Below are positions 1 to 6,871 of a stretch of 64,000 bases of DNA, in pieces (the first letter of the stretch is position 1; each line of letters opens with the position of its first letter). The translations under genes and the position numbers were made by a program. The notes beneath the pieces were generated by a model. That model was not told where the DNA came from. It ran no database searches and saw nothing but the letters and a program-made list of their open reading frames with translations. The stretch lies in NCBI GenBank assembly GCA_043732185.1, contig JAYTHY010000046.1:124876-188875 (forward strand), in the 5' to 3' direction. Origin of the DNA: Fibrobacteria bacterium. Its GTDB lineage: Bacteria > Fibrobacterota > Fibrobacteria > UBA11236.

Positions 1-160
1 TGGTAAAGAGACTTTCCTGTGCTGGTATTTGGTATTTCATGTACTCTTTTTTTGATTTATCAAATTTAACGATTAGGGAGTCAGGAGAATAATTTTGAAA
101 TTTAGCCGCCATAATAATCGCCGGCATGAAAAAAAATAGATGTCCAAATAATTTCACCAT
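1..160 (-). CDS. Partial (runs off the window start) secreted hypothetical protein; tandem paralog of 197..820, candidate immunity protein
   Basis: Not in the ORF track. Manual translation from ATG at 160 gives MVKLFGHLFFFMPAIIMAAKFQNYSPDSLIVKFDKSKKEYMKYQIPAQESLFT, 40/53 identical to the N-terminus of 197..820. Same upstream AAAGGAAATAAGAAA-ATG. Confidence 0.85.
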   Translation of the reverse strand, partial: MVKLFGHLFFFMPAIIMAAKFQNYSPDSLIVKFDKSKKEYMKYQIPAQESLFT

Positions 161-196
161 TTTCTTATTTCCTTTAAAAAAGTTGGGATAGTCAAT

Positions 197-820
197 TTAT
201 TTCTTGAAAATTACAGAGGAGTCAACATGCCGCAACATGCCCTGCAGATTTTGTATAAATCCGACAGCAAAACTACCCGATTTCTTTTTATAAATCCCAT
301 TCGACCTCACAAAAAACAGCATTCTTAGGAAGGATGGATCGCCATTGACATTTTTATAATACACTATTATCAAATCAGGTGTTTCAAAAACAGCTTTAAT
401 TTCAATACTTTTAACATCCTTCCAAGCACTGAAAAACCTTAGGCTGTCTTTCTTTTGCTGAAGCATGGAATCCACCCATGCTCGACTTGATAATTCATGG
501 AGCGCTACCATTTTCTCTTTATCGCCAGAATTCACAACAAATAAGTAGTTGGCAACTGCTTCAAATGGCGTCCTGGGATCGGGGATTCGACTAGGAAAAA
601 TTTTAACAATATTTGAATCTGGAAATATCTGACCTAAAAAATGCAACTCTCGAATTTCTTTGGTAAAGAGGCTTTCATTTGCTGGTATTTGGTAGGTAAC
701 ATAGTCTTTTCTTGATTTATCAATTTTAAAGATCAATGAGTCTGGAGAATAATTTTGAGATTTGGCCGCCACAATAATTGCTGGAATGAAAAAAAATGGG
801 ACCCCAAATAGTTTCAACAT
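197..820 (-). CDS. Secreted hypothetical protein (207 aa), candidate immunity/partner protein
   Basis: Hydrophobic N-terminus ending IIVAA resembles a signal peptide; AGGA SD; AT-rich; starts 13 nt after the stop of the large Ig-repeat gene. Confidence 0.8.
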   Translation of the reverse strand: MLKLFGVPFFFIPAIIVAAKSQNYSPDSLIFKIDKSRKDYVTYQIPANESLFTKEIRELHFLGQIFPDSNIVKIFPSRIPDPRTPFEAVANYLFVVNSGDKEKMVALHELSSRAWVDSMLQQKKDSLRFFSAWKDVKSIEIKAVFETPDLIIVYYKNVNGDPSFLRMLFFVRSNGIYKKKSGSFAVGFIQNLQGMLRHVDSSVIFKK

Positions 821-833
821 TTTCTTATTTCCT

Positions 834-3800
834 TTAAAATAGTGGCCCTAAATCCCACGATACTGCATACGAAATTAACTCGACTTCGGTTGCCATTATA
901 ATACTGGCCGTTGCTGTAAGTGTTGGCGCTGCAATGGTAGGCAAGCTAAACTCCCAATCAGGATAACAAAGCTTTCCTTTTGCAAAAACTAGCGATAGAG
1001 CACCTTCAGTTTGCAACTTGATGAGATCACACGTCCCAATAACGCACCCTGCAGCTTGAATAGCAACCGTTCCGCTCCCAGATATATCCCCACACACTCT
1101 GTCACTATTACACCCTGTCGTTAAGTTCCCGCTTCCAGTCCCTGTGACTTCCAAAGCAACGGAAAATGAAACTTGAATTTCTGCCCCCAAATTAGGAACG
1201 TAGTAACTGTATGAAGGAGTATTGCATCCAGCTATTTTTCCAGAAAGCGAGCCGCCTATACCGACAACTTCCTTGTCTTCACAATTGCATGCTTGGTGAC
1301 TCTTTGTACCAAAAAGACTCCATCTAATAGTTGGAGAGCAAGCCTTGGTTGCCTCAATATTTTTCAAATAGTTGTTCAATGCGTTTTTATCCCAGCCCAA
1401 ACCACTTACAGTTTCAGAAAAATCTGGATTGATTATGCCAACACTGGTAGAAGCACTAGTTGTACCTGCCTTTATCGTGACGATACCTGTACCTTTTCCG
1501 CCTGCTAGAGAAGGGACGACCCCATCGAAATTGACAGCAGGAGAAAGTTCAAATCCCGCTGGATTTGTAGTTATCTTAAATTTGGATTTCTCTAGAGCTT
1601 CACCGGCCTGAAAATATTTGCAAGTTGTAGAAACCGACGATACTCCAACACAAATACCAAAACTCGACTTTTCAGCCACTCCTCCACCGTTACAATTCCA
1701 GGTGGCCTTATTGTAGAATGTTCCTGGAGTAGTGCATGTAACATCATCAAAATGCAAATGGTTAGAATTGCCTGCAGGTTGACTCCAAGACAAGCTTCCG
1801 TTTTCTGGATTAGTCGTCGCATTATAGCGAATTTCCTCACCCATCCCAACAATAGGATTTTCAACCGAAACATTTACTTCACATTGCGAACAAGTACCCG
1901 TCGGATTCCCCGGCCCACCGCAATGCCAGCCACCCTTCACAATCCCAAAGCCCTTATCCGAGGTCATCGTTGCCCCATCCTCGCTCACAGTTCCAGTTCC
2001 GATGCTCACATAGGTCCCTAAATCATGATCAAAAGAATAAAAATGCGTTTGCTCCCCAGGCTTCAGTCCGTTTACATTAGGAAAAGTTATTGGCGCAGGT
2101 GGGTCAAATTTAACCTGAGGAGGCCCAATCGAAACAATAAACCTCGGCTGCATTCCCTCTCCAGGAGGCATGGGAATTTTATCGGCATGCACAGCCGTGA
2201 CCGTAATGGTATGGTCATCCAGATCCGGAGGGAAGGTGGCCGACCCTGCGGGTATTTTTAAAGAAAAGCCTGGGATCTCTGAAAGTGTTATAATCTGCTC
2301 CGTCGATGCGCTCGGAACCTTACCTTCTGCATTGTTTCTAGCTACCAGATACATCGGCATCCCGATATCATTATTCTTGCCGCTGATAGCATTCACCTCA
2401 AACATCAAGGTCACCCAATCGCCGGGCTGCGTGGCCGTTGTTCCATCGACATGCAGATGCAGATTGCCTACGGGGGTGTTGGAAAGTTGATATTGCCCTG
2501 CACTATTGGTTGTAGTCTGTTGCCCATTTTCTTCGATACGTACCGTTACGCCTTGTAGAGGCTGATTGCTATTGTCCAGGATGACACCGCTTACCTTTGT
2601 TTCTGAAGGCGGGCCTGGAATATATCCGGAAAGCACGAAAATGGCCGGCTGACTGGGATTGCCTGCGAAGGAAGCTTCCACAAGGTTATTATCCCGTCCC
2701 TCTTGTAATCCTAAAGTGAAAGAAGCCACTGCGCGCCCATCTTCTCCCGTTATGGCGGAGTCCAAATTCTGCCCTTGGAAATGGCCGCCGCCTGTTTTGA
2801 CTTTGAATTCAACCATCATGCCGGGAATTGGATTACTGGCGCTATCGGTAACAATGGCGACAAGTGGATGTGGGGCTCCGTTTCCAGCCAAGCCCCGTTG
2901 CATATCACCGGAGGCGGTCAAAATGCGTTGCGCCAATTGAGTTTTTGCATTCGCATGGAAAACGACAGCGCCAGCAAAGCCCTCGGCCACAGCTGTAACC
3001 TCATTGGCTCCAGGTCCTGCGCGCTTGCCTAGCACAAACGGAACCGATGCCAATCCATCAGCATCCGTAGTTACCCGCAATGTTCGAGCATTTCCCGTAA
3101 AAGAGCCATCCCCCACGCTAACGTGGAACAGGACAATCTGCCCGGCGACTGGTTGATTCAAGGAGTTTTTGATTGAAACAACGAGTTGCTGAGGGAGAAG
3201 CGCGAAAATAGTGCCGCTTTGATTGTTACCAGAAAACAGGGTCAGAGAGGGAGCTACAGAAACGTCAAGCGTTACATGCGATACGGCACTTTCCACATTC
3301 CCGGCCCGGTCAGTTGCTACGGCTGTAATCGTATTCATGCCGGAGGACAAAGGAAGCACGACGGAAAAAGTATTGTTAACTACTACAGCCTCGATGCCAT
3401 TCACCTTGACCGAGGGCATGCTTTGGCCTTGGACATCGGCAATTCGATCCGAAACGCTTCCTGAAACCGTGACCGAATGCTCTCGCATCACCAAGCTATC
3501 TGCTGGCGAGGTAATGTAGATTCGTGGTTTTTCCCGATCTAAAGTAACCGTGAGCGTGGCGGAAACTTGATTCCCGTCTTGGTTAGTCGCCGTGGCCATC
3601 AGCGTGTTCCGACCATCAACCAATGGAACCAACGTCTCAAAATGATTTCCAGAAATGGCCGTGGGAATGCCATCAATACGAAGATTGGTCAAGACACCGT
3701 TGGTTTCCCCCGCAACAAGAATATCGGCAGTTCTAACCGTACTTAAGTTGGCTGGAGAAGTTATGATAAGGGCTTGGGGTGGCAAGGTACAGGTAAAGTC

Positions 3801-5474
3801 CGACAAAAGGGTTGCCGTATTCCCAATGGCATCCTGCACACTACTCGAAATATGATGTTCACCTTCACTCAAAGAAAGCACAGCCACAGCCGAGTCCGCG
3901 GAATGGATAAGGTTGGTGGTAATATTTATTCCGTCCAAAAGCACTTGCAGCGTGGCTTGGGCTATAGGTGATAGGGAATCGCTAAAGATTATTTTTAGCG
4001 GGACTGAGAGATCGGCCAGTACTTGGTGGTTAACGGGATTAACTGAGATTCTAGGAGGGATGGTATCCAAGGTCACAACAACCTCAGCTTTACCCAGATT
4101 TCCAGCTGCATCGGTTGTATCGACCTTTAACACATTCGCTCCCGGTGCCAGAGAGAATGTTTTTGATCGCGCTGCGGAGTCTACTGTATAGTGCACCGTG
4201 ATGGTGCTTGCGGATACAACTGTGTCTCGCCCCGGGCTCGATATAACCACTACGGGAGGATGAGAATCGCGGTTAATGGTGATCGAGGCCGATCCCGAAT
4301 TTCCTCCTAAGTCCGTAAAGGAGCGCGTTACCACGTTGGGACCTTCGGTCAGGACTTCAAAGAGTTGATTGGATTGATCAAGTCCATCCACAGTCCAAGC
4401 GATTTCAGATGCCGGTTCTTTAGTAAATGATCCATTTAGCGGACTTGTGATGGCAACTATAGGTGCCCGGGTGTCCAATGTGACTTTGGCAGTATCTGCA
4501 CCACGGTTCCCGGCCGCATCCGTGGAATCCACCACTAGGAGATTTAATCCTTCTACCAAGGTAAAAGTCTTATTAAATCCGGTAACGCCATCGACTTGAT
4601 AGCTTATTGCAAAAGTTGAATTACCAACGACCGTGTCGCGACCTGGGCTGGATAGGACTACTACGGGTGCATGTGAATCGCGATTAATGGTAATCGAGGC
4701 TGTGCCTAAATTCCCTGCTAAATCTGTAATGGAGCGCGTCACCACATTGGGACCTTCGACCAGAACTTCACTGCGTTGGCTAGATTGATCAATTCCATCC
4801 ACAGTCCAAGTGATTTCAGATGCTGGTTCTTTAGTAAACGACCCATTTAATGGACTTGTAATGGCAACTATAGGCGCCTGGGTGTCCAATGTGACTTTGG
4901 CAGTATCTGCAGACCTACGACCAAAAATATCCACGGAATCGATGATTACCCGATTTACTCCCTCGACCAATTCCACCTGCCGATTGAAGGCCAGCCCATT
5001 CACTGTGTATCCTACGGAGAAGGGAGTCTTGTTTACCAAGGTATCACGAGATGGGGACGTAATAATCAGTGAGACTGGAGGGGGTGGAGGTTGTTCGGCA
5101 CCCATCCATTGGATGTCATCAAGGTATACCTGACCTGAAGCATCGGCTGCTTTAAGCATTAAGCGTCGAATGGTTCCGCTTCCTCTCATATGACCCTGTT
5201 TTACAACAGTGACTTCACTGGTACGGTTTGGCGATCGATCCGCAAAAACCTGATATACCCCGCTGGAAATATTTCCGACGAGGCGCATATAAATCCATTG
5301 CCCAGTAACGTTGGAAAGACTTCCTACTTGATTGGCGCAAACTCCAACGCGAAATGCCGCCTTGTGATCGACATTACCAACTAAACTGTCAGAAGGGCCA
5401 AAACAAAGATTGGAATTGGAATTCAACCTGAACCAGCGCCATCTAATTTCAAAGGCTCCTGTTAATATCTGCAT
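834..5474 (-). CDS. Large extracellular protein with bacterial Ig-like repeats, a carboxypeptidase-regulatory-like domain and a Cys-rich C-terminal tip (candidate polymorphic toxin/adhesin)
   Basis: Repeated DTxAPxVxITSP...LVEGxN...DxAGN Ig-like units; invasin/Big_1-like SGNNQSG...PQQLVV units; VSGVILDNSNQPLQGVTV...TTNSAGQY; Cys-rich last ~360 aa. The true start is probably 5744 (see findings). Confidence 0.8.
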   Translation of the reverse strand: MQILTGAFEIRWRWFRLNSNSNLCFGPSDSLVGNVDHKAAFRVGVCANQVGSLSNVTGQWIYMRLVGNISSGVYQVFADRSPNRTSEVTVVKQGHMRGSGTIRRLMLKAADASGQVYLDDIQWMGAEQPPPPPVSLIITSPSRDTLVNKTPFSVGYTVNGLAFNRQVELVEGVNRVIIDSVDIFGRRSADTAKVTLDTQAPIVAITSPLNGSFTKEPASEITWTVDGIDQSSQRSEVLVEGPNVVTRSITDLAGNLGTASITINRDSHAPVVVLSSPGRDTVVGNSTFAISYQVDGVTGFNKTFTLVEGLNLLVVDSTDAAGNRGADTAKVTLDTRAPIVAITSPLNGSFTKEPASEIAWTVDGLDQSNQLFEVLTEGPNVVTRSFTDLGGNSGSASITINRDSHPPVVVISSPGRDTVVSASTITVHYTVDSAARSKTFSLAPGANVLKVDTTDAAGNLGKAEVVVTLDTIPPRISVNPVNHQVLADLSVPLKIIFSDSLSPIAQATLQVLLDGINITTNLIHSADSAVAVLSLSEGEHHISSSVQDAIGNTATLLSDFTCTLPPQALIITSPANLSTVRTADILVAGETNGVLTNLRIDGIPTAISGNHFETLVPLVDGRNTLMATATNQDGNQVSATLTVTLDREKPRIYITSPADSLVMREHSVTVSGSVSDRIADVQGQSMPSVKVNGIEAVVVNNTFSVVLPLSSGMNTITAVATDRAGNVESAVSHVTLDVSVAPSLTLFSGNNQSGTIFALLPQQLVVSIKNSLNQPVAGQIVLFHVSVGDGSFTGNARTLRVTTDADGLASVPFVLGKRAGPGANEVTAVAEGFAGAVVFHANAKTQLAQRILTASGDMQRGLAGNGAPHPLVAIVTDSASNPIPGMMVEFKVKTGGGHFQGQNLDSAITGEDGRAVASFTLGLQEGRDNNLVEASFAGNPSQPAIFVLSGYIPGPPSETKVSGVILDNSNQPLQGVTVRIEENGQQTTTNSAGQYQLSNTPVGNLHLHVDGTTATQPGDWVTLMFEVNAISGKNNDIGMPMYLVARNNAEGKVPSASTEQIITLSEIPGFSLKIPAGSATFPPDLDDHTITVTAVHADKIPMPPGEGMQPRFIVSIGPPQVKFDPPAPITFPNVNGLKPGEQTHFYSFDHDLGTYVSIGTGTVSEDGATMTSDKGFGIVKGGWHCGGPGNPTGTCSQCEVNVSVENPIVGMGEEIRYNATTNPENGSLSWSQPAGNSNHLHFDDVTCTTPGTFYNKATWNCNGGGVAEKSSFGICVGVSSVSTTCKYFQAGEALEKSKFKITTNPAGFELSPAVNFDGVVPSLAGGKGTGIVTIKAGTTSASTSVGIINPDFSETVSGLGWDKNALNNYLKNIEATKACSPTIRWSLFGTKSHQACNCEDKEVVGIGGSLSGKIAGCNTPSYSYYVPNLGAEIQVSFSVALEVTGTGSGNLTTGCNSDRVCGDISGSGTVAIQAAGCVIGTCDLIKLQTEGALSLVFAKGKLCYPDWEFSLPTIAAPTLTATASIIMATEVELISYAVSWDLGPLF
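4210..4910. repeat. Intragenic direct repeat, two ~300-bp copies offset by 411 bp (137 aa; two Ig-like domains per period)
   Basis: ggacttgt(g/a)atggcaactatagg...gtgtccaatgtgactttggcagtatctgca at 4441 and 4852; protein DTAKVTLDT(Q/R)APIVAITSPLNGSFTKEPASEI occurs twice. Boundaries approximate. Confidence 0.85.
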
Positions 5475-5549
5475 GGGACGGAAATACTCCGTACTTCCAG
5501 TGACTACACAGCTTAAATACTGATTGCCGCCACTTGCCTGAATCCTGAA

Positions 5550-5744
5550 TTAATGGGCATTTGCTTGCCCGCATGAAGCCTGAAATTTCCATCCATCTTG
5601 ACCATCAAGGATTTGGCCGCTTAAATATTTCGGTGAAGCAAAATCAAGAGTGTCTGCCCAAACGAACGGTTGGCCAAGATACACTACCAACATCAAAAAG
5701 GCTTTAAAGACGCTCAAATTGAAACGAGGGAACAAATGGATCAT
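5550..5744 (-). pseudogene. N-terminal signal-peptide fragment of the large Ig-repeat gene, separated from it by one in-frame TAA
   Basis: Same frame as 834..5474; 25 sense codons (FRIQASGGNQYLSCVVTGSTEYFRP) lie between TAA 5550-5552 and ATG 5474; signal-like MIHLFPRFNLSVFKAFLMLVVYLGQPFVWA. Confidence 0.7.
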
Positions 5745-5905
5745 GCATAGAGCTTAGATAAATCGGAACGTTTTACACATCCCGCACGCCATTTTATTCA
5801 AAAATCCATCGACCAAGGCTCATTAATTAATTATTTTTCTGCCCTAAAATTTGGCAAATCTCTCTAAAAGCGCACACATAAAACTCTTTGGTAGCAGGAT
5901 CATAA

Positions 5906-6871
5906 ATGAAATTCAAACGCACCCTTCCAACCGCCCTCCTCACCTTCTCCACTGCAATTCTTAGCCTAGTCACAGGCTGTTCCACCATTGGAAAAGTGGG
6001 CCCGGCAGAAGACCTAGTCGTCCAAGCCACACCGGAAAGAATCGAACGCGGTAAATACTTGGCGCATCATGTTTCCCTTTGCATTGATTGCCACTCGACG
6101 CGGGACTGGACTTATTTTTCCGGCCCACCAAAAGATGGAACCTGGGGCAAAGGCGGAGAAGTGTTCGATCAGAAATTTGGATTTCCCGGCAGTTTCATCT
6201 CACGCAATATTACCCCAGCTGGCGTAGGTACCTGGTCGGATGGCGAATTGTTCCGGGCCATTACCGGAGGCGTGAGTCGAAACAACAAGCCGCTGTTTCC
6301 CATCATGCAATACAAGGCATTCGGTCAAGGCGATAGGGAGGATATTTATTCTATTATCGCCTATGTGCGTTCGTTGCCGGCCATTGAAAATAAAGTACCG
6401 GCTTCCAAGGCGGATTTTCCGGTTAGTTTGCTGATGAAGACAATGCCACAAAAACCTCATTTCACCACTATGCCGGAGAAGTCAAACAAGGTCGCTTATG
6501 GAAAATACCTGGTGACGATGGCTGCTTGCATTGAATGCCATACGGAAGCCAAACGAGGCAAGCGCGTGGGTCCGGAATTTGCCGGAGGGTTCAAGTTTAC
6601 CATGGCGAATTTTACCGTGTACTCCAAAAATATCACGCCTGATTCCGCTACCGGTATCGGCGCGTGGAGCGAACAACAATTCATCAACCGCTTTAAGACG
6701 TATGCCGATCCGGCCTACTCCCCCAAGCCGCTTGCCAAGGGCGACAATCAAACGATCATGCCATGGGTCATGTTCAGCGGAATGACCACGGAAGACTTGT
6801 CCGCCATCTATACTTATTTAAGAACAGTTGCCCCAGTGAAACGGGTTCCGCCAGCTCCGGTTTTTAACTAG
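5906..6871 (+). CDS. Diheme c-type cytochrome lipoprotein
   Basis: Two CxxCH motifs (CIDCH, CIECH), each preceded by GKYL and followed by NITP...G.G.WS; lipobox LVTGC. Confidence 0.9.
   Translation: MKFKRTLPTALLTFSTAILSLVTGCSTIGKVGPAEDLVVQATPERIERGKYLAHHVSLCIDCHSTRDWTYFSGPPKDGTWGKGGEVFDQKFGFPGSFISRNITPAGVGTWSDGELFRAITGGVSRNNKPLFPIMQYKAFGQGDREDIYSIIAYVRSLPAIENKVPASKADFPVSLLMKTMPQKPHFTTMPEKSNKVAYGKYLVTMAACIECHTEAKRGKRVGPEFAGGFKFTMANFTVYSKNITPDSATGIGAWSEQQFINRFKTYADPAYSPKPLAKGDNQTIMPWVMFSGMTTEDLSAIYTYLRTVAPVKRVPPAPVFN

Follow-up and report, generated by a model that had tools for sequence, protein, structure and literature searches.

An exchangeable Cys-rich cassette behind a ZU5-like junction in a giant surface protein gene of a Fibrobacteria bacterium: a possible effector-immunity locus

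Introduction

The 64,000-nucleotide stretch of Fibrobacteria DNA considered here (contig JAYTHY010000046.1, positions 124,876-188,875; the window) opens with a locus, analysed over window positions 1-5744, in which a giant gene encodes a stalk of immunoglobulin (Ig)-like repeats with a Cys-rich tip and is followed by two small genes for exported proteins, here called partners. The question raised by this locus is the purpose of the tip: it could be a weapon held in check by the partners, an interchangeable binding or enzymatic domain, or an anchor in the outer membrane; and it may be asked whether the locus still works in this genome. A preliminary description, made from the sequence without database searches, had proposed a polymorphic toxin-immunity locus. 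The layout is that by which a polymorphic effector-immunity locus is structurally defined, and on balance we favour the reading that a Sec-type system of this kind is present, with the giant gene as its first gene and with the tip and the partners as its variable cassette. Positions on the contig to the left of the window are given below as negative numbers.

Exchange of the cassette between closely related strains

The comparison with a second genome of the same genus (G002, Fibrobacteria; its locus is L005) showed 97.6% DNA identity over 1857 nt (window 1881-3737). From position 1881, across the 2.4-2.5 kb which hold the tip and the small genes, no DNA similarity between L005 and the window could be detected; it returns at window -608, with 80% identity, a short way upstream of a gene for an LVIVD protein. 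The L005 tip belongs to the same family as the tip described here, with 36% identity, and the first downstream gene of L005 (208 aa) shows identities of 33% and 28% with the two partner copies of this genome. The second gene of the L005 cassette (L005:3538-4188) encodes a protein of 216 aa that is unrelated and has a membrane helix at its N-terminus, at the place where partner copy 2 sits in this genome. The features of the locus are the following:

5553..5744, minus strand: first 64 codons of the giant gene, with the ATG, a hydrophobic signal-peptide-like segment (…VYLGQPFVWA-D) and the start of the N-terminal domain
5550..5552, minus strand: in-frame nonsense codon TAA at codon 65, seen in the translation; AAA in G002
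2448..5549, minus strand: stalk, comprising the N-terminal domain, Ig-like repeats and CarboxypepD_reg (Pfam)
1914..2447, minus strand: ZU5-like junction domain, aa 1010-1187, from a 29-sequence alignment and a profile against the PDB
1920..1937, minus strand: KGGWHC motif, aa 1180-1185, with which conservation ends ahead of the variable tail; candidate processing site
1881..1887, no strand: left breakpoint of the swapped cassette, L005 and the contig X3 breaking at 1881 and the contig X5 at 1887
837..1889, minus strand: variable Cys-rich tip, aa 1196-1546, with the stop codon at 834-836
1410-1655, minus strand: best modelled of the Ig-like modules of the tip, tip aa 79-160 (AlphaFold2, AF2, model)
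837-1409, minus strand: all-beta domain of the tip, about 190 aa, with Cys at hairpin turns (low-confidence AF2 model)
197..820, minus strand: partner gene 1, encoding an exported protein of 207 aa, which is NTF2-like in a low-confidence model
-463..160, minus strand: partner gene 2, a tandem paralog 70% identical to partner 1 (first 53 codons in the window, 1..160)

Contigs of four runs were also compared with window 1-5800. X3, which comes from the study that also produced the probable source run, is 95-99% identical over 1881-5800 and then diverges, and its letters past 1881, translated by hand, read RLDIANASPV, which is the L005 tip. X5, from another study, diverges into different letters (ACRVEVTAED) and represents a third allele. 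Fragments of the 207-aa gene, with 90-95% identity, are present in both X5 and X6. The conserved DNA that encodes the junction acts as the recombination point on the left side.

The content of guanine plus cytosine falls from 0.496 in the stalk to 0.434 in the tip and to 0.361 and 0.357 in the partners, a decrease which the preliminary description had already noticed; the genome mean is 0.492 (standard deviation 0.033), and 1-kb windows with a content of 0.36 or less make up 0.02% of the 4388 in the genome.

A different explanation would see in the giant protein a variable-tip adhesin or surface enzyme carrier, the stalk of which displays interchangeable binding or matrix-degrading end-domains. 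The partners would then act in the periplasm as cognate chaperones or inhibitors, holding the end-domain in a folded or silent state before it is exported, and the diversity would arise from different substrates or receptors, or from phage and predator pressure. We consider this explanation unlikely, and the exchange itself argues against it, since the replacement of tip and partner together (36% and 33% identity) beside a stalk that is 97.6% identical is the signature of a conflict system.

Co-variation of cargo and downstream genes in the family

A scan of species-representative genomes with the junction domain gave 15 loci, distributed over Fibrobacteria, Nitrospirota/Nitrospirales, Thermoanaerobaculia, Candidatus Angelobacter, Candidatus Troglogloeales, Phycisphaerae and Gemmatimonadota, and a scan of metagenome contigs gave 28 loci. 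Only five of 40 relatives of the window's genome have a match, hence the giant gene is accessory. The 45 sources taken together (44 loci and the window locus) included 40 with the junction motif and 35 with complete tails, 34 of which were long enough to cluster; these 34 tails, from six or more phyla, formed 20 cargo clusters by their last 170 aa.

A first small open reading frame (ORF; ≤600 aa) was found after the tail in 29 of the 35 loci, and an N-terminal hydrophobic segment, assigned by a Kyte-Doolittle heuristic, in 22 of these 29 ORFs. The family of the partner tracks the cargo cluster in the window and L005, in L007 and L037 (with a tandem pair in both), in L009, L043 and L044, and in L008 and L052, the cargo of which is only 35% identical and yet goes with a shared partner family. 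The partners differ in the loose cluster that joins L012/L041 with L033/35/36, where the cargo is 25-27% identical. Apart from DsbA-like proteins and the conserved giant described below, no partner family occurred with two cargo clusters. Tandem partner paralogs are present elsewhere in L007/L037 and in L010, and the occurrence of such duplications in three cargo families is a further point against an adhesin.

In the comparison of homologs that the preliminary description had suggested, it was found that the stalk is kept, the C-termini differ and the downstream genes mostly change alongside. Neither a C-terminus conserved among the homologs nor a lack of co-varying downstream genes, the genomic outcomes that would tell against such a locus, was encountered.

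In 17 of the 22 loci with at least 2.5 kb of downstream sequence a second giant gene, of the LVIVD type, follows; in L018 its place is taken by a giant with FG-GAP repeats. Proteins with triple DsbA/thioredoxin domains are encoded at L008:10479-12314 and L013:2708-4531, and DsbA-like ORFs are also present in L015 (11217-11801), L050 and L056. The presence of DsbA-like genes in loci with very Cys-rich tails (20-30 Cys) suggests dedicated disulfide formation for the cargo; Cys-rich tails accompanied by such genes would also fit extracellular binding domains, in favour of the adhesin explanation.

The stalk and the ZU5-like junction

The Ig-like repeats and the carboxypeptidase-regulatory-like domain recognised in the preliminary description were confirmed by Pfam, which matched Big_13, Glucodextran_B (two stretches), MG4 and Big_1 on the stalk and CarboxypepD_reg at aa 961-1010 (window 2445-2594). 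RHS/YD and haemagglutinin repeats, correctly said to be absent, gave no Pfam match at E ≤ 0.01, and at the same threshold no family matched aa 1011-1546 of the giant protein. The search of NCBIfam gave no match above the cut-offs for any protein of the locus.

A word-indexed search with aa 1150-1546 retrieved 17 homologous proteins, all of which align along the stalk; the alignment ends at query aa 1184-1378, and the tails beyond it measure from 13 to 1031 aa. Only the tail of P0004 aligns with the present tip (27% over about 175 aa, covering the Ig-like part). The Pfam families PF27332 and PF26198 are precomputed on some of the 17 homologs. The conserved region closes, in 16 of the 17, with the motif …SFDHDLG…GTGTVSEDG…G(I/V)xK(G/A)GWH(C)…, and in the giant protein described here with …SFDHDLG…GTGTVSEDG…GIVKGGWHCGG. 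The alignment of 29 junctions showed G173 and W174 to be invariant and H175 and C176 to be at least 90% conserved, exactly where conservation stops, the variants at the Cys position being T, S, A and Y.

The Pfam scan of the single junction sequence gave a weak match with ZU5 (E 0.066). PF00791 (ZU5) was matched by nine of the 29 junction members, with a best E of 0.0099 and all of them under the 21-bit cut-off. The profile of the 29 sequences, compared with all PDB sequences, found six chains at E ≤ 10, five of which are ankyrin ZU5 regions (E 9.3e-5, 1.7e-4, 2.2e-3, 0.033 and 0.77). Judged from these profile matches the junction belongs to the ZU5 superfamily, an assignment that is new for this locus; neither this nor the conserved second giant gene had been noticed in the preliminary description.

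A pattern of His, a hydrophobic residue and Ser or Thr is the cleavage site of the autoproteolytic domains of the ZU5/GPS/Nup98 superfamily. In addition to the profile match, the junction shares with this superfamily, at the close of the domain, a near-invariant His with Cys, Thr or Ser as the next residue; it differs in that the motif is W-H-C, not H-F-S, with Ala or Tyr in two homologs. The conserved motif suggests that the junction may cleave itself at the KGGWH-C site.

In PMC3482391, ZU5 is listed among the autoprocessing domains found in polymorphic toxins and in large bacterial surface proteins; its position in RHS proteins is given there as N-terminal. The ZU5-like domain described here, in contrast, directly precedes the variable tail. 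In the surface proteins mentioned there ZU5 occurs together with modules for adhesion and with lipases or glycohydrolases that remodel the matrix, and this is in favour of an adhesin or enzyme carrier.

Cargo in relatives

The profile of five Cys-rich tails (L013, L015, L017, L051 and L053) found three PDB matches, all of them phospholipases A2 (PLA2): the Streptomyces enzyme 1faz (E 2.5e-5), the fungal enzyme 4aup (E 7e-5) and 7ygk (E 0.04). The C-x-H-D-x-C-Y catalytic motif was aligned, and H147, D148 and Y151 are invariant in the five tails; Pfam Phospholip_A2_3 matched two of them, under the cut-off (E 5.8e-4 and 0.004). By this sequence comparison one cargo family of the relatives is phospholipase-A2-like, and Tox-PLA2 is a polymorphic-toxin domain listed in PMC3482391. 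The tail of L012 contains DUF6973, above the cut-off, and that of P0006 matched DUF922 with 24.2 bits, under the cut-off of 27. The occurrence of enzyme-like cargo in relatives weakens the adhesin alternative.

Two further assignments made by eye, namely a transglutaminase-type protease for the tails of L010, L032 and L034 and a 3D-domain lytic transglycosylase for those of L009 and L043, were rejected, as the profiles found nothing in the PDB better than E 0.09. HExxH motifs were noticed by eye in the tails of L006, L030 and L047.

The Cys-rich tip of this genome

The tip, which the preliminary description had been unable to assign to a family, consists of 351 aa with 14 Cys and matched no Pfam family. 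Its own family is very rare, with three proteins at E ≤ 0.001 among 1.84 billion representatives: P0021, a fragment of 305 aa; P0022, a secreted protein of 443 aa with Ig-like modules and the tip domain; and P0023, of 1733 aa. In addition to an eCIS_core domain (E 3.2e-30), P0023 carries five tandem copies of a segment of 52 aa that is 33-37% identical to tip aa 281-332; the same beta-hairpin module is therefore present in a likely cargo protein of a contractile injection system. No further copy of the tip was found in the genome itself, and a metagenome scan with a two-sequence tip alignment gave 275 pattern matches, none of which was confirmed. A similarity between the tip family and the L007 tail, suspected by eye, was unsupported (hhalign probability 11%).

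The AF2 model of the tip, based on a four-sequence alignment, has a mean predicted local distance difference test score (pLDDT) of 57.6. It shows one confident Ig-like module, at aa 79-160 (pLDDT about 80), and long beta-hairpins with conserved Cys at the turns in the C-terminal part. The opening of the tip with Ig-like modules is again what would be expected of an adhesin.

The structure-only search (VIA-align) with tip aa 160-351, a part with pLDDT 50-63, gave outer-membrane barrels as best matches (Z 7.9 to 5), among them pOmpT (Z 7.9), a Legionella porin (Z 7.0), OpcA (Z 6.6) and the NalP translocator (Z 6.3). These matches, the long hairpins, and the C-terminal Phe of this protein and of the L005 and P0021 tips would be in line with the C-terminal 190 or so residues being an outer-membrane beta-barrel anchor in the manner of autotransporters or OmpA, with the N-terminal domain distal and the NTF2-like partners as chaperones or plugs. 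Such an anchor is, in our judgement, highly improbable. The Z values stay below 8 in a poorly modelled region, and Foldseek with the tip model had no match at E ≤ 0.001; the last residues (…SWDLGPLF), examined by eye, lack the alternating pattern of a final barrel strand. Moreover, the unrelated tails found at the same position (PLA2-like, DUF6973) cannot be anchors, P0010 and P0011 end 29 aa past the motif, and there is no obvious reason to swap an anchor with a partner between near-identical strains. It is tempting to speculate that the tip is a membrane-inserting beta structure, a hypothesis which fits the strands of alternating Ser/Thr/Gly and hydrophobic residues, as judged by eye.

The small partner genes

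The stop codon of the giant gene is followed after 13 nt by partner gene 1, and partner gene 2 starts 36 nt further on. Both genes are as the preliminary description had them: ORF 197..820 encodes the 207-aa protein with a hydrophobic N-terminus, and the diverged second copy was found to be complete to the left of the window, where the search for further copies had been recommended. The genome contains just these two copies. The N-terminal hydrophobic segment of partner 1 ends, by eye, in VAA-K and that of the L005 partner in AMA-E; as neither has a lipobox Cys, these N-termini are read as cleaved signal peptides, and the partner proteins are probably periplasmic.

No Pfam or NCBIfam family matched the partners. 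Six proteins in 5.8 billion clusters, with 33-70% identity, make up the partner family; this extreme rarity, in a family that follows the cargo, speaks against the adhesin explanation. In the AF2 model (pLDDT 51.7) the partner looks NTF2-like: most of its best 50 structural matches are NTF2-like, SnoaL-like or cystatin-like cones, with Z of 7.8 at most, and they include VirB8 and the immunity protein Tai3 of a type VI secretion system (T6SS; 4hz9_B, Z 5.6). The leads obtained from the Atlas were weak: two unnamed clusters (0.94 and 0.93), DUF4468 (0.89) and DUF4864 (0.86). The fold statements for both tip and partner are weak, because even the highest Z values, 7.9 for the tip and 7.8 for the partner, fall in a range that the tool calls common for unmatched models. 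The prediction of a complex of the tip with the 207-aa protein scored 0.01 and 0.00, against a mark of 0.32, which is evidence neither way.

The nonsense codon and possible decay of the locus

The giant ORF extends over 834..5474 on the minus strand, encoding 1546 aa counted from its own first ATG, and the same frame continues upstream of 5474 to an ATG at 5744. The frame of about 1636 codons given in the preliminary description for 5744 to 834 is not open: the TAA at 5550-5552, which had been overlooked, splits it into 64 codons with the signal peptide and 1571 open codons. The signal peptide previously reported is thus present, judged by eye from the translation without a predictor, but it is severed from the rest of the protein by this codon, and the product of the next in-frame ATG (5474) would have none. 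The product of 5553..5744 had no match in Pfam or NCBIfam. As the N-terminal domain continues past the TAA, this is one gene with a nonsense codon and not two genes.

G002 is 97% identical in this region and has AAA (Lys) at the codon concerned. An independent contig from the probable source run showed no difference from the window over 4882-5800, so TAA is the consensus at 5550-5552, a comparison that reveals the consensus only, with minor alleles dropped. Another genome of the genus, G008 (L029, C368), aligned to window 5400-5780, lacks about 150 nt of the N-terminal region of the giant gene, the TAA position included, which would be a second independent lesion in this region of the gene. 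The second giant gene (L001:6921-11437, equal to window -5079..-563) consists in this genome of an 1186-aa and a 319-aa ORF in different frames with a 4-nt overlap, while its L005 ortholog is one ORF of at least 1760 aa that can be aligned across the break; the break is either a frameshift or a natural split.

The most likely consequence of the TAA is that this copy of the effector is not exported, with the partner genes intact, and the giant gene is probably inactivated in this genome. In view of the nonsense codon in the effector gene and the second giant in two frames, the locus may be decaying while the partner genes persist. It would then be a remnant with a dead effector, of which only the immunity-like partners may matter, for example in protection against neighbours with live alleles. 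To such a remnant, for which the absence of a signal peptide from the product starting at 5474 and the deletion in G008 also speak, we give a little less than an even chance. Against it, there is just one stop and the other 1571 codons are open; an intact allele may coexist in the population, since contigs drop minor variants; and read-through, or a sequencing error in an assembly of depth 11, is conceivable. This question concerns activity in the present genome, and decay is compatible with an effector-immunity reading of the locus.

In the same genus, L024/L026 (G001:C78) retain only a short junction fragment (query aa 120-186) with an internal TGA, which may be an orphan or decayed cassette stub.

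Neighbouring genes

To the left of the cassette follow, in this order, the genes for the 1186-aa, the 319-aa and a 718-aa protein. The first contains LVIVD, TSP3_bac, Big_2, Big_7 and CarboxypepD_reg domains, and the second repeats its C-terminal modules. The 718-aa protein (L001:4768-6924, equal to window -7232..-5077) has a lipoprotein-like N-terminus (…LLGCSG) and matched nothing in Pfam or NCBIfam; its gene is the last in the same-strand run, and a helicase gene is next. Directly upstream of the giant gene, and divergent from it, lies a gene for a 321-aa cytochrome c protein (window 5906-6871, plus strand). Related loci have at their far end a gene resembling those of di-haem peroxidases (L013) or one for a cytochrome c (L018), possibly a recurring neighbour. 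A scan for promoters and terminators found sites no more numerous than in shuffled sequence, and a look through the sequencing runs turned up none of RNA.

Proposed mode of action

The preferred reading, a Sec-type polymorphic effector-immunity system, can be set out as follows. The giant protein is built, in order, of a signal peptide, an N-terminal domain, the Ig stalk, CarboxypepD_reg, the ZU5-like junction ending in KGGWHC and a C-terminal cargo. The low-GC cassette of 2.4-2.5 kb, with cargo and one or two exported partner genes, is exchanged as a unit between strains and is followed by the conserved second giant gene (LVIVD beta-propeller, TSP3, Big_7). In this genome the cargo would be a rare, disulfide-rich, all-beta module and the partners two periplasmic NTF2-like proteins. 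From outside the cytoplasm, the cargo would attack the envelope or the membrane of competitors, and the exported partners would neutralise it in the periplasm of the producer; the junction would free the cargo by self-cleavage near His-Cys of the motif, and the LVIVD giant may aid display or delivery.

Several observations weigh against this reading. The tip gave no Pfam match even at E ≤ 1, that is, no toxin or enzyme signature, and no Atlas match above 0.82; the models of tip (pLDDT 57.6) and partner (pLDDT 51.7) are poor. No small ORF lies between tail and giant in four of the 35 loci (L013, L017, L034 and L038), two of which carry PLA2-like cargo, and the five PLA2-like tails have differing partners or none. 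The counts of co-variation overstate independence, because L033/35/36 and L043/44 are near-duplicates. The residue after the motif His is Ala in P0011 and Tyr in P0020 and is therefore not always a nucleophile, and the ankyrin ZU5 domains matched by the junction are not known to cleave themselves. Finally, the giant gene is interrupted in this very genome. Two of these points, the missing toxin signature and the four loci without a partner gene, are those on which an adhesin would also rely. As regards the earlier proposal of a polymorphic toxin-immunity locus, its genomic side, layout and exchange, was borne out, but a recognisable toxin fold in the tip was not found and the small gene is not universal.

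A bolder version of the effector-immunity reading is rather unlikely to hold in full. According to it, these loci would form a phylum-spanning, previously undescribed class of Sec-exported contact weapons with an Ig stalk, a self-cleaving KGGWH-C junction, a swappable disulfide-rich cargo and an LVIVD/FG-GAP giant as display or delivery partner; the cargo described here would be a disulfide-stapled beta-hairpin pore-former that inserts in the target envelope and is blocked by a new NTF2-like immunity family.

Comparison with known systems

The polymorphic toxin systems of the Sec/T2SS type, as presented by Zhang, de Souza, Anantharaman, Iyer and Aravind in 2012 (PMC3482391), resemble the present locus in the signal peptide, the long repeat stalk and the conserved domain before a variable C-terminal module, and also in the co-changing small downstream gene, the tandem copies and the low-GC cassette. 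Tox-PLA2, Imm-NTF2, ZU5 processing and Sec-exported polymorphic toxins all appear there. In contrast with the systems described there, the stalk here is made of Glucodextran_B, Big_13, Big_1 and CarboxypepD_reg and not of RHS, FilH, ALF or tail-fibre repeats; the ZU5-like domain stands next to the cargo; the partners are exported; an LVIVD giant comes after the cassette; and the cargo and partner families match no library model. The TcdB/TcaC toxins of the same source are similar in that ZU5 is coupled to a beta-propeller, as it is here through the second giant (LVIVD, or FG-GAP in L018), but the Pfam search of the locus found no SpvB domain or RHS cocoon.

In CdiA/CdiI of contact-dependent inhibition (CDI), as here, a conserved motif (VENN there, KGGWHC here) marks the point of exchange of a C-terminal domain with a small gene; unlike CDI, the giant and its neighbours showed no two-partner secretion domain, haemagglutinin repeat, VENN or CdiB in the Pfam search, and the giant differs from Rhs/YD toxins, which are marked by RHS/YD repeats and a core that ends in PxxxxDPxGL, in having no RHS match at E ≤ 0.01. 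The periplasm-acting T6SS pair Tae3-Tai3 (PDB 4hz9) offers, according to the partner model, a parallel in the exported NTF2-like partner and the implied envelope target; the locus, however, contains no T6SS genes and no PAAR, VgrG or Hcp domains, and the Sec signal belongs to a giant surface protein. No account of this architecture was found in the literature, as judged by titles and the beginnings of abstracts.

Significance

If the effector-immunity reading is true, the polymorphic toxin systems gain from this locus a delivery scaffold and a cargo-adjacent type of ZU5-like junction. Antagonism has hardly been studied by experiment in the lineages concerned (Fibrobacteria, Nitrospirota, Thermoanaerobaculia, Candidatus Angelobacter, Phycisphaerae and Gemmatimonadota). 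The KGGWHC junction would provide a sequence handle with which unannotated pairs of extracytoplasmic effectors and inhibitors, including Cys-rich ones with DsbA-like genes, could be harvested from metagenomes, and the three alleles at one junction in sediment and freshwater populations would be a ready system for tests of strain-level exclusion.

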